The notes beneath the pieces are model-generated. The model was not told the origin of the DNA. It worked only from the letters and a program-made list of their open reading frames with translations, and did no database searches. DNA of 64,000 nt from Octopus vulgaris (lineage: Eukaryota). Shown one piece after another: positions 15,274-34,677 of the stretch (positions are counted from its first letter, which is position 1; each line of letters opens with the position of its first letter). The DNA is taken from NCBI GenBank assembly GCA_951406725.2, contig OX597824.1:75454001-75518000 (forward strand), given 5' to 3'. The translations under genes and the position numbers were made by a program.

Positions 15274-16900
15274 TTTCTTTATTACCCATAAAGGGCTACA
15301 CAGAGGGGACAATACAAACATTGGGGACAAATAACATCACAATTACATAAATATGGAAAATGAAATATGAAAAATGATAGATGAAAGTGATACTAACGGC
15401 CCCATCCGCTAGCATCACTTACCTGTCCTTCATACTTTATCCTCGATGTAATACACCTTTCTCTCTATTTTCCTCTCGAATTTCTTTTCTATTTCCGTTA
15501 TTGTCTCGTCATTTATTTCCAATCTATACACTTCATTGTTTTTCTCTTCGCATTTTACCACGAATTATATATACATTTTACCACGAATATATATATACAT
15601 TTGTGTACATACGTTCTTCCGAAATTACCGCATATCTACTACTGCCCTTTTCACACCATTGGTAGTCATTCATTATTTTTTTTATGTCATTTCTCCTTGA
15701 AATACCTAAAAAATTGGGCCTAGGTTTTTTTGTGGTATCTTGTCTGTTTGCTTCTTTTTTTTTTTTTGTTTTCTTGCGGGTGGGTTTCAGAGGGTGCGGG
15801 TGGTGTTGGGGTGGATTGGGGTTCAGCACGATTTAATTTTCTCCTTCTCTTCCTCCTTTTTCTGCCTTCTTCCCATTCCTTTTAAACCTCCTCTTCCGTT
15901 GTGTCTTTCTCCGTTGGTTTCTGCTCCTCTTCTTCGGCCACTACATCTCTTTGTGGTTCCGTATCAATTTCCTTTGATGGGGGAGGGCAGTTAGCTCTTT
16001 TGTGACCTCTCAGGCCACACTTGTAACAGCGTGGAGCTCTGCCCTCCACCCACACTCTCATCATAACACCTCCCATTCTGATGTTCTCCGTCAATTTTTC
16101 CAATGTTTCAGCCTCCGCTCGCAACTTTAATTCTAGAACTGCACCCCTCCAACCTTCATCTTTCACAGTAGCATGGAGGATGTCTACTTCTTCCTCACAT
16201 CCACTGATTATGGCTGCCACTATCCATTCTCCGTCAACCTTTGGGGGGTTTTCCCTCCACCCTGATCCGAGTAGTTTTTCTATTCAGATATGAGGGCAGA
16301 AGGAACACCTTTTCTGTCTTCACCGCTCTCGCTGCCATTCTCCTTGCCACACTTTCGTTCCTGAATTGGACCACCACAGTACCGAAATATATGCCTTTTG
16401 CCAAGAATATTATATCTTCCTCCGTTCTTTTCAGTGCTTCTTCTATTAATTCCATATTGACTACTTCAATTTTCTTTTTTCCATTGGCATAAACTTCGTT
16501 CATACCACTCTCTTCGTTTTGGTGGCGGTGACAACTCCACTTCACCGCCGTCCTTTTTAATGAATTCCTGGTAGCTTGGCAGTTTGGCCAAGTCTATTTC
16601 TTTTTCCTCCGATTTTTTTGTCACTCCTGCGTAAGTGTTTCCTAATTGTTTGTCCATCTTTTTTATTGCCTTCTCAAGCTCTTCTTCAGAAGTCGACAAA
16701 TCTGACACACTCTCGAATATATTTCGTCTGGCCATCTCTCCCATTAGGGAGGGGCCGTCCACTTCTTCCTTGTCTGTCTCAACACAGACAAAAACCGTGC
16801 AACAAAAAACCGAGCAGCAAAACGTTTAACAAAATTAACAGATAAACAGTTGTAAAGTGTAACGCAGTAACAAAATTAGGAAAAATTAACTCACGACTTC
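15274..16900 (-). mobile_element. ORF1-only (HAL1-like) Tx1 derivative, degenerate; same family as 33052
   Basis: Frameshifted ORF1 from ATG 16744 (MGEMARRNIF...DLAKLPSYQEFIKK...EGRAPRCYKCGLRGHKRANC); no EN/RT; tail CCCTTTATGGGTAATAAAGAAA; ~1.63 kb; right-hand TSD not found. Confidence 0.8.
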
Positions 16901-17120
16901 GCCACCGATGATTTCTTTATTACCCACTAGGGGCGACACAGAGTAAACATACAATCACGAATGATGAAACAATTCTGAACTTTTGGGGTCAGTTAAAAAA
17001 TCGGAATGAACAATAAAAATCGAATGATTACACAAAGACAAAATTACAAAATGCAGTGGGGCGGGTCCGCGACCTCATGCTCCCCGCCACGACACTTAGC
17101 CTTGTGATTTCTTTTGCGTC

Positions 17121-32741: not shown

Positions 32742-33051
32742 CCGCCAGCCGTGGATATCTGTCCCGATTCGCAAATGTATATGTCTAATTTTCAGTGAAG
32801 TCTATTCACTGATTACCAAAATCAGAAATATTAAATTTCTAAATCTCTCATAGAGATATGTACGGTGGTGGGGCGATAGAATGGTTGTATAGTGTCAATC
32901 TAACGTGAACGTGACAGTAGAGGGTTACACCACCGCTGTTTAGCCCTAGGAAGCATCGACGCTTCCTGATGGCTTCGACACATGGCTTCCTTCAGTTAAA
33001 CAGTAATAATAACAAAGCTTACGGTGAATCAAAAAGCAGTACGCAATTGAA

Positions 33052-34677
33052 TATTTCTTTATTACCCACGAGGGGCCACACAGAAGGGACACTACAAACA
33101 TTGGGGACATAGAACATCACAATAACATAGATATGAAAGATGAAATATGAAGATGATAGATGAAAGTGATACTAACGGCCCCATTCCGCTAGCATCACTT
33201 ACCTGTCCTTTAGTTATTAGTCTCAAACAAATCTCCCTTGCTCAGTCCCAATGCAATATGCCTTCCTCTCTATCTCTCTCTCGAACCACTCTTCCAACTC
33301 CTTCACCGTCTCTTCATCCATGTTCACCTTAGATATTCCCCAGTCCTTCCCTTCGCACCTTTCCACAAACTCATCCACTTGTTCCTTTGGGATTACTGCA
33401 CATCTTTTCCGTCCCCTATCACACCATTGGTAGTCCGTCAGTCTTTTGTATTTCCTCTTTCCCTGCAATACATAGAATGTTGGGCCTAGGTTTATTTTTA
33501 GTATCTTGTTCGTATGCTTCTCTTTTTTGTTTTCTTGTTGGTGGGGAGTGGATGGGTTCACTGTCTGCAGGAGAAGGGTGGGTCTCAGAGGGTGGTGTTG
33601 GGGTGGATTGGGGTTCAACATTGTTTTTCCTCTTCTTTTCCTCTTTTTCCTGACTTCTTCCCATTCTTTTGAAACCTCCTCCTCCTCCTCCGTTGTCTCT
33701 CTCTCTCCTTTGGGTTCTGCTCCTCCTTTATCTCTCTTTGTGGTTCCGCATCCATATCTTTCGATGGGGGAGGGCAGTTAGCTCCTATGTGACCTCTCAG
33801 GCCACACTTGTAACAGCGTGGAGCTCTGCCCTCCACCCACACTCTCATGATAACGCCTCTCATTCTAATGTTCTCTGTTAAATTCTCTAGTACTTCATCA
33901 TCCGCTTGTACATTCAAATCTAGCGTTGCGCCTCTCCAGCCTTCGATTTTTACCGTGGCATAGAGAATGTCTACTTCTTCTTCATGACCGCTAATTATAG
34001 CTGCCACAATCCATTCAGCTTCGACATTTGGGGGTATTCCCTCTACCCTTACTCTAGTGATTTTCCTGTTTAGGTATGAGGGCAAAAGGAATACCCTCTC
34101 AGACTTTACTGCTTTCGCCGCCATCCTCCTTGCTACACTTTCACTTCCGAACTGTACCACCACAGTACCGTAGCTTATACCTCTTGTCAGAAATGTTATC
34201 CCCTCCTCTGTTCTTCTCAGAGCCTCTTCTATCCATTCCATATTTACCACTTCGATTTTTTTCTTTCCGTTTACATAGACCCGGTATGTAATAGTATTTT
34301 TCTCGTACCATTCTCTGCGTTTTGGTGGCGGTGCTAATTCCTCCTCACCGCCGTCCTTCTTGATAAACTCCTGATAGCTTGGCAGTTTGGCCAAGTCTAA
34401 CTCTCTCTCTCCTCTTATTTTTTGGCCACTCCAGCACAAGCATTACCCAATCTCTGGTCCATTCCTCTTACCGCCTTCTCCAACTCCTCCTCAGACGCAG
34501 ACAAGTCCGATACGGTTTCGAATATTCTTGCCGTCTCTCCCATTAGGGAGGGGCTGCGCCTGTCCGTCTCAACACAGACAGACAACAACCAAAAACCGTA
34601 TAACAAAAACGTTCAACAACAGATTCAACAATCAGTAAATAGTCAGCAACTTATAAAAATCAACCACTCCACGACGT
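33052..34677 (-). mobile_element. Complete ORF1-only (HAL1-like) Tx1 derivative, 1626 bp, with 16-bp TSD
   Basis: TSD GCAGTACGCAATTGAA at 33036-33051 and 34678-34693; frameshifted ORF1 34543-33223 (LLPSYLNRK, EGRAPRCYKCGLRGHIGANC); tail CCCCTCGTGGGTAATAAAGAAATA. Confidence 0.88.

Follow-up and report, generated by a model that had tools for sequence, protein, structure and literature searches.

Non-autonomous long interspersed nuclear elements (LINEs) in which the first open reading frame (ORF1) is present have been listed for three clades, namely HeT-A (Jockey), HAL1 (L1) and Ag-Sponge (CR1) (PMC5786205). HAL1 is a derivative of L1 that encodes only the ORF1 protein (ORF1p) and had several origins (PMC5753468, PMC5786205). 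At Drosophila telomeres, ORF2 was lost repeatedly, and ORF1-only lineages founded new ORF1-only lineages (PMC13534243). In the present study, a 64,000-nucleotide (nt) stretch of the genome of Octopus vulgaris (assembly GCA_951406725.2, contig OX597824.1, positions 75,454,001 to 75,518,000; hereafter the window, the numbering of which is used below) was found to contain ORF1-only elements of three families, A, B and C. These very probably represent three deep lineages of non-autonomous LINEs, which encode only an ORF1-type RNA-binding protein, were inserted as complete units and are likely copied in trans by the endonuclease (EN) and reverse transcriptase (RT) of full LINEs of L1/Tx1 type.

The octopus families function like HAL1 and HeT-A and are members of neither, and the ORF1-only strategy itself is already known. 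With HAL1 they share the state of non-autonomous LINE derivatives encoding ORF1p alone. However, HAL1 comes from mammalian L1, whereas the octopus families do not, and their partners are L1/Tx1-like LINEs of invertebrates. In addition, the octopus ORF1 differs from HAL1 in its predicted tandem RRM-like domains, CCHC knuckle and extra C-terminal domain; the elements end in a hairpin followed by AATAAAGA, with no poly(A); site specificity is seen in two of the three families; and the lineages are deep, not recent deletion products. HeT-A and other telomeric Jockey elements are also ORF1-only, depend on the ORF2 of relatives, as the octopus families would do, and form head-to-tail arrays (PMC13534243). 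They belong, however, to another LINE clade, while the octopus arrays are internal (that on C2 lies at 138.8 of 215.6 Mb) and sit within other repeats rather than at chromosome ends, and dispersed octopus copies have ordinary target-site duplications (TSDs). Ag-Sponge, a mosquito element of the CR1 clade, is of the same ORF1-present kind and of another clade (PMC5786205).

Two further groups of elements are relevant. Site-specific members of the Tx1 clade, which are LINEs of APE type, prefer certain targets: Tx1D for Tx1L, U2 snRNA genes for Keno and microsatellites for Kibi and Koshi (PMC4494074). Such a target preference, often for other repeats, is shared by families B and C and by a LINE1-like element described below. 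In contrast to the site-specific Tx1 LINEs, which are autonomous, octopus B and C are devoid of their own EN, and their targets are a ~380-bp repeat and a short interspersed nuclear element (SINE) of tRNA type (tRNA-SINE). In stringent SINE/LINE pairs, a short 3′ tail is common to the LINE and its dependants (PMC4494074, PMC5786205, PMC4176376); similarly, two full octopus LINEs (LINE2 and LINE3), family A and a SINE have one common tail. Here, however, the dependant is a protein-coding, RNA polymerase II-sized element and not a SINE.

In a paper on the repeats of O. vulgaris, 13 recently active L1-Tx1 families were reported, and the terms "ORF1" and "non-autonomous" each have 0 occurrences in it. 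No description of ORF1-only elements of Tx1 type or from octopuses was found by full-text search of papers; Repbase and Dfam, which lay outside this search, may contain them. The present families extend the half-LINE strategy to a mollusc, among whose L1/Tx1-like elements it is followed by at least three long-lived lineages; protein-coding half-LINEs had been listed for L1, Jockey and CR1 only (PMC5786205).

Structure of the elements in the window and in the genome

The elements in question and the full LINEs of the window are as follows.

33052-34677, minus strand: family A ORF1-only element (A33052), 1626 nt; ORF1 homology between 34543 and 33220, interrupted by a stop and frameshifts
33036-33051 (3′ copy) and 34678-34693 (5′ copy), minus strand: TSD of A33052, 16 bp, exact, TTCAATTGCGTACTGC
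31119-32741, minus strand: family B ORF1-only element (B31119), 1623 nt; ORF1 homology from 32635 down to 31280, broken
31103-31118 (3′ copy) and 32742-32757 (5′ copy), minus strand: TSD of B31119, 16 bp, exact, TATCCACGGCTGGCGG, equal to the fixed family B landing site in the ~380-bp repeat
27126-29250, minus strand: family C ORF1-only element (C27126), 2125 nt; ORF1 homology between 28697 and 27388; frameshift near 28047-28070
27110-27125, minus strand: target tag of C27126, AAGTAGCTTGCTAACC, within a tRNA-SINE; imperfect 5′ copy at 29251-29265
15274-16900, minus strand: second family A element (A15274), 1627 nt; ORF broken; 5′ end adjoining LINE2 at the 3′ end of the latter
22912-23595, minus strand: family A fragment, 5′-truncated; 3′ tail clipped after GCCCTTATGG, exactly at the 5′ end of LINE2
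30110-30700 (approximately), minus strand: remnant of another ORF1-bearing element (D), of a type which also flanks A2/LINE3 trains on two other chromosomes
9209-14498, minus strand: LINE1, full-length LINE; ORF1 of 381 amino acids (aa), ORF2 in two frames
9191-9208 and 14499-14516: TSD of LINE1, 18 bp, TCACTATATATTTTTAAC
16912-22909, minus strand: LINE2, full-length LINE; ORF1 of 475 aa; ORF2, split over four frames, with APE endonuclease, RT and zf-RVT; tail identical to the family A tail

In all four elements (A33052, B31119, C27126 and A15274), ORF1 is broken by frameshifts or stops. A previous reading of the window, made from the sequence alone, had described the first three of them as units with a 5′ untranslated region (UTR), a single ORF1, a short 3′ UTR and TSDs of 15-16 bp, lacking EN and RT, and had placed the fourth in the family of A33052. 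The sizes, the presence of ORF1 and the lack of EN and RT stood up to the analysis, but what had been taken for a short 3′ UTR turned out to be largely coding. As for the TSDs, those of A33052 and B31119 are indeed exact over 16 bp, but the repeat flanking C27126 is imperfect (AAGTAGCTTCTTACC versus AAGTAGCTTGCTAACC, 9 bp exact). No TSD of its own was found when looked for at A15274. The attribution of this element to family A was confirmed, and the fragment at 22912-23595 proved to be real.

In LINE1 and LINE2, Pfam gave a weak zf-CCHC match in ORF1 and Exo_endo_phos, RVT_1 and zf-RVT in ORF2. By tblastn with ORF2 of LINE1 and LINE3, homology to EN and RT in the window is confined to 9436-12884 and 17130-20504, i.e. 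to LINE1 and LINE2, and ORF1 homology was detected by the same program in all four elements, in the fragment 22912-23595 and in the remnant at ~30110-30700. Neither EN nor RT was found in families A, B and C by Pfam, and in the fetched loci tblastn with ORF2 matches adjacent LINEs only. LINE3 is a third LINE, situated on two chromosomes downstream of arrays of A2 elements, which are relatives of family A with ~70% identity in protein. Its ORF2 DNA is 81% identical to that of LINE2, and the copy on C17 has an open ORF2 of 1132 aa. Database relatives of LINE3 ORF2 have the same Pfam set as the ORF2 of LINE1 and LINE2; the names of the 120 relatives listed were uninformative as to a clade label. 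It is plausible that these LINEs, and by descent the ORF1-only families, belong to Tx1, judging by the APE, RT and zf-RVT architecture, the site specificity and the L1-Tx1 label of octopus LINEs, which in PMC13282606 and PMC8967140 is not tied to the copies in the window.

Each element was searched against the 2.8-Gb genome, and 40 of 839 candidates were scored for A, 40 of 355 for B and 39 of 2346 for C. Among the matches listed, 24 of 56 for family A are near full length (spanning at least positions 8-1558 of 1626), as are 26 of 51 for family B (start at 5 or before, end at 1599 or beyond of 1623). In family C, just 2 of 106 listed matches span all 2125 nt; most copies have a 5′ UTR and first two thirds of the ORF that are 96-97% identical, together with a differing 3′ part, the last 150 nt of which are 77% alike. 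Of the near-full-length copies present in the fetched loci, 12 of 18 in A and 12 of 14 in B are bounded by direct repeats of 11 bp or longer, and the observed repeat length was reached in 0 of 200 shuffles for each of these copies, save one B copy with 1 of 200. TSD length in the families is 11-23 bp. In A33052-type copies, TSD sequences are varied, i.e. there is no preference for a target sequence.

These data bear directly on the supposition that each copy is a full LINE which lost ORF2 by a private deletion after its insertion. Two full LINEs are indeed located nearby in the same orientation. However, dozens of copies on many chromosomes have the same ends and their own TSDs, which rules out deletion locus by locus; their ORF1 is just 26-34% identical to LINE ORF1, and the ORF continues into a C-terminal domain unlike the LINE sequences compared. 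A unique deletion breakpoint in each copy was not seen, so that private deletion is refuted by the common family structure and retains practically no probability, and the earlier view that the elements moved as complete units is upheld.

The ORF1 protein, its lineages and selection on it

Although the window copies are broken, intact ORFs were found in the loci obtained by DNA search: in 3 of 20 for A (445, 446 and 454 aa), 2 of 20 for B (463 and 450 aa) and 1 of 20 for C (416 aa). Intact relatives of A and B have a 5′ UTR of about 80-100 nt and a 3′ UTR of about 150 nt, and the ORF fills most of the element. When an intact A ORF was used as a protein query, 67 of the 95 scored matches (from 38,406 candidates) were without an internal stop; with a B ORF, this was true of 13 of the 95 matches listed.

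According to the sequence-only reading, the ORF1 proteins had only short motifs in common. In fact, a homologous core of ~200 aa unites the proteins of A, B, C, LINE1 and LINE2 (26-37% identity, BLASTP E 5e-14 to 1e-52), the range between half-LINE ORF1 and the ORF1 of the two window LINEs being 26-34% with E 5e-14 to 4e-47. Comparison of profiles of the A and B cores gave a probability of 99.9%. AlphaFold models of one A and one B protein have a mean pLDDT (predicted local distance difference test) of 69, with 80-90 in the core and about 70-87 in the C-terminal domain. In both models, two alpha/beta domains come first; they are followed by the CCHC knuckle, then by a linker that is basic and disordered, and finally by a small alpha/beta domain at the C-terminus. 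The best PDB matches of the cores in Foldseek are tandem-RRM proteins, including IMP3 RRM12 (E 1.4e-5), raver1, hnRNP A1 and Sxl. Judging by these models, the ORF1 core consists of tandem RRM-like folds and a CCHC knuckle.

The C-terminal domains are specific for each family (hhalign probability of A versus B 0.6%) and showed no similarity to the window LINEs or LINE3; the ORF1 proteins of the window LINEs have merely a short tail at this place. In the intact ORFs, the only Pfam match (E up to 1) was zf-CCHC, which fell short of the curated cut-off, and the C-terminal domains gave no credible match. A word-indexed protein search with an A ORF gave no match at E ≤0.001 among 8000 candidates, and HMMER against 1.84 billion representatives gave 1681 relatives at E ≤0.001. 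Ten of the latter were looked up; the seven that were named are mostly uncharacterised proteins from Octopus vulgaris, O. sinensis, O. bimaculoides and Argonauta hians. Several units are present in public protein sets as hypothetical genes or fused models, and in repeat annotation units of 1.6-2.1 kb are probably counted as LINE fragments or unclassified repeats. As a separate observation, octopus gene models labelled CFAP65-like or hypothetical (P0251 and its cluster) contain a stretch matching the C-terminal domain of family A; they are probably gene models fused with a copy of the element.

In the maximum-likelihood tree of the core, three starred clades were obtained: A+A2 (98/99), B (100/100) and C (100/100). 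The ORF1s sampled from LINEs, four in all, group weakly (77/92), and none of them is nested within a half-LINE clade. Since three deep, well-supported ORF1 clades stand apart from the four LINE ORF1s sampled, the claim of several lineages holds; with its four LINE rows and no outgroup, this tree does not reveal in what order events took place or how many times ORF2 was lost.

The ratio of nonsynonymous to synonymous substitution rates (dN/dS) was calculated by the pairwise Nei-Gojobori method for 19 stop-free copies of A and A2. Its median is 0.32 for 45 pairs with dS 0.05-0.2 and 0.21 for 57 pairs with dS 0.6-1.5, and reaches 0.56 in the 34 youngest pairs (dS <0.05). Family B (12 stop-free copies, 66 pairs) has a median of 0.19, and no pair exceeds 0.68; by region, values are about 0.05-0.26 in the core and mostly 0.1-0.5 in the C-terminal domain. 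The check proposed earlier, dN/dS below 1, thus gave a positive result in both families. The ORF is under purifying selection, and the values fit lineages in which active members need the protein and copies drift after insertion.

Such values might also be expected if the units were a tandemly duplicated host gene family, domesticated from a LINE ORF1 and kept, without mobility, for a cellular role. Tandem arrays of near-identical units with open ORFs exist (14 units on C2), and vertebrate ZCCHC3-like clusters are among the nearest atlas neighbours (score 0.90, rank 8). On the other hand, dispersed copies carry TSDs, each unit terminates in the tail of a retroelement, other repeats serve as targets for B and C and many of the sites are empty, many copies are decayed, and dN/dS rises up to 0.56 in the youngest pairs, as would be expected with drift after insertion. 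In our opinion, a host gene family is a very improbable explanation in comparison with mobile ORF1-only LINEs.

Links to enzyme-bearing LINEs: tails, landing sites and trains

The first link of the half-LINEs to full LINEs is the 3′ tail, which is also present in a train of SINEs at the beginning of the window.

33054-33084, minus strand: common 31-nt 3′ tail, TCTGTGTnGCCCnTnnTGGGTAATAAAGAAA; predicted 4-bp hairpin immediately ahead of AATAAAGA; tail also at 15274-15304 and, in LINE2, at 16912-16942
192-2074, plus strand: SINE train of ten 185-bp head-to-tail units, 96% alike and truncated at one 5′ point, each ending in a tail of LINE2/A type

The pattern of this tail, made from the last 31 nt of both A copies and LINE2, has 12 matches in the window against 0 expected, and the other nine are 3′ ends of SINEs. 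The last 31-45 nt of family A are common to LINE2, LINE3 and the SINE; the tail of LINE3 has ~40 nt in common with A15274. In the SINE train, a 23-nt tag, TATATATAATTGTATAATTGTGA, lies between the units. A predicted 4-bp hairpin precedes AATAAAGA in all families, and its stems differ in a compensatory manner (GCCC/GGGT in A and GGGC/GCCT in B, with a closing pair G-U, G-C or A-U within B), which, with four pairs only, is no more than suggestive.

The second link is the landing site. Among 18 family B copies with a complete 3′ end, 14 are inserted at one position of the ~380-bp repeat, 3 at the matching position of diverged relatives of this repeat and 1 elsewhere. The target position itself was encountered 42 times (30 loci, some overlapping): 29 occurrences are empty, 9 have a B 5′ end exactly there and 4 are of other kinds. 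Because empty sites occur along with filled ones, the B copies are independent hits and not one amplified composite. Rfam gave no match to the B target region. At C9:20.04 Mb, the target is followed by a 15-nt tag, TCCAATCGAAAACCG, a full LINE1-like element, the same tag, a B-like unit, the same tag again and the rest of the target; the RT of this element is 81% identical in protein to that of LINE1. LINE1-like sequences adjoin B copies at further loci. The tag AAGTAGCTTGCTAAC comes after 25 of the 26 true tails of family C, in 23 cases with no more than 3 substitutions and in 2 with a 1-nt insertion. Nine of the 23 tags run on into the tRNA-SINE and 14 into other sequence, mostly the 5′ end of another unit, and both tags with the insertion lead into another unit. 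Families B and C are therefore site-specific, the latter for one spot in a tRNA-SINE, and a preference for a target sequence was seen for B, C and the LINE1-like element. A single B copy, L023 (C1:117840001-117844638), has an extra, older TSD, TGATCTGCGGCTGGCGG, between its new TSD and its 5′ end, which suggests that the source copy was transcribed from upstream flanking DNA.

From the tail that A has in common with LINEs, and from the target and TSD that B has in common with the LINE1-like element, we infer that the half-LINEs are mobilised in trans by the ORF2 protein of a partner. In the proposed mechanism, the RNA of the element would be bound by its own ORF1 protein, the small hairpin with AAUAAAGA at the 3′ end of this RNA would be recognised by the ORF2 protein of the partner, and the endonuclease of the latter would choose the insertion site. 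The TSD would recreate the target on both sides of the insert, so that the site could be hit repeatedly; head-to-tail trains are proposed to arise for the reason that each side of an insert again offers a complete site.

A2 forms head-to-tail arrays, with 14 units in that on C2, at least 10 in that on C17 and further ones on C38, and at least 20 of the 25 tails listed, as read by eye, run straight into the 5′ end of another element. The arrays at C2:138766001-138796000 and C17:67736001-67760000 end in the same LINE3 and TSD-like sequence, ACATGGAGGAAA, and both sit in a 5′-truncated ORF1 element of the type seen in the window at ~30110-30700; they may be paralogous segments or mark a recurrent target.

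For trains of this kind, at least those of A and A2, formation in one event, in which the RT, having reached the 5′ end of an RNA, would continue on the 3′ tail of another, was also considered. At A-type junctions, the 3′ tail is joined directly to the next 5′ end, in some cases with a few filler bases, and there are no TSD tags; LINE2 abuts A15274, and the tail of the fragment is clipped exactly at the start of LINE2. Moreover, end-to-end jumping of LINE RT is cited in PMC4494074. At the same time, a single event is at variance with the absence of a TSD around the window chain fragment-LINE2-A15274, with four junctions having a duplicated, TSD-like 5′ piece of 17 nt, with the very great length of a 14-unit cDNA (about 25 kb) and with the tags between units in the family C trains and in the B/LINE1-like train. 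We regard template jumping as possible for the A-type trains, though rather unlikely.

Several facts weigh against trans-mobilised, selected half-LINEs or against parts of this explanation. The UTRs of A and LINE2 have nothing in common apart from the last 31-45 nt, neither the rest of the 3′ UTR nor the 5′ UTR being alignable; taken together with the ORF1 identity of 26-34%, this means that no family is a recent deletion product of the LINEs sampled. The tail of the LINE1-like element at the common B site, with its GATCACTTGATC hairpin, is unlike the B tail except for ATAATAAAGATA, and recognition of the tail is consequently less clear for B than for A. For family C, no enzyme-bearing partner could be identified; at two loci, C copies have further ORF1-only units downstream of them. 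A-type trains, including the chain in the window, have neither TSD tags between units nor a flanking TSD, and are therefore not explained by TSD regeneration. Finally, dN/dS was calculated from stop-free copies alone, which biases it towards conserved copies.

A broader picture can be offered only tentatively. Octopods may be host to an old radiation of ORF1-only "hyperparasites", which renews itself and exploits site-specific LINEs of Tx1 type. Each of its deep clades, no fewer than three, would have gained a different extra C-terminal domain under selection, letting its own ribonucleoprotein capture the ORF2 protein or the landing site of the partner in competition with the LINE, and the mixed trains of half-LINEs and LINEs within SINEs and other repeats would mark a continuing conflict. 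Irrespective of this, a selected RNA-binding protein, a short tail, fixed sites in the absence of an own endonuclease and young copies with open ORFs make up a testable system for studying how ORF1 proteins and 3′ tails determine which RNAs are copied by a LINE enzyme.

Other observations on the window

LINE1 is nested in a short ORF-less element of ~380 nt (9032-9190 and 14517-14716, minus strand) with its own 16-bp TSD, TATTGACAGAACTTGA. About 160 nt at the 3′ end of this host element resemble the 3′ UTR and tail of family C; from this resemblance, it is possibly a derivative of the C lineage.

In C27126, a tandem duplication of 105 bp was noted at 28640-28849 (minus strand), which is absent from other C copies, and contigs of two sequencing runs skip 104 nt there. 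For the frameshift of the same element, an assembly error at a G run had been raised as a possibility. Near 28066, the contig of one run is 2 nt shorter in this G run, and contigs of three other runs span it without that change; such contigs were matched to the window at 92% likeness and may derive from other copies, so that an assembly error is neither supported nor refuted by them. None of the sequencing runs listed is recorded as RNA; contigs of four runs, whose RNA status is a guess, are thin over family C and deep over adjacent repeats, which says nothing about expression.

All eight ORF1-bearing elements between 9209 and 34677 (26 kb) are situated on the minus strand, which could be explained by a chain effect or by selection inside a host gene. 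The family A fragment is directly bordered, where its 5′ part is truncated, by a 31-nt 3′ tail of a SINE in the opposite orientation (23596-23626, plus strand).

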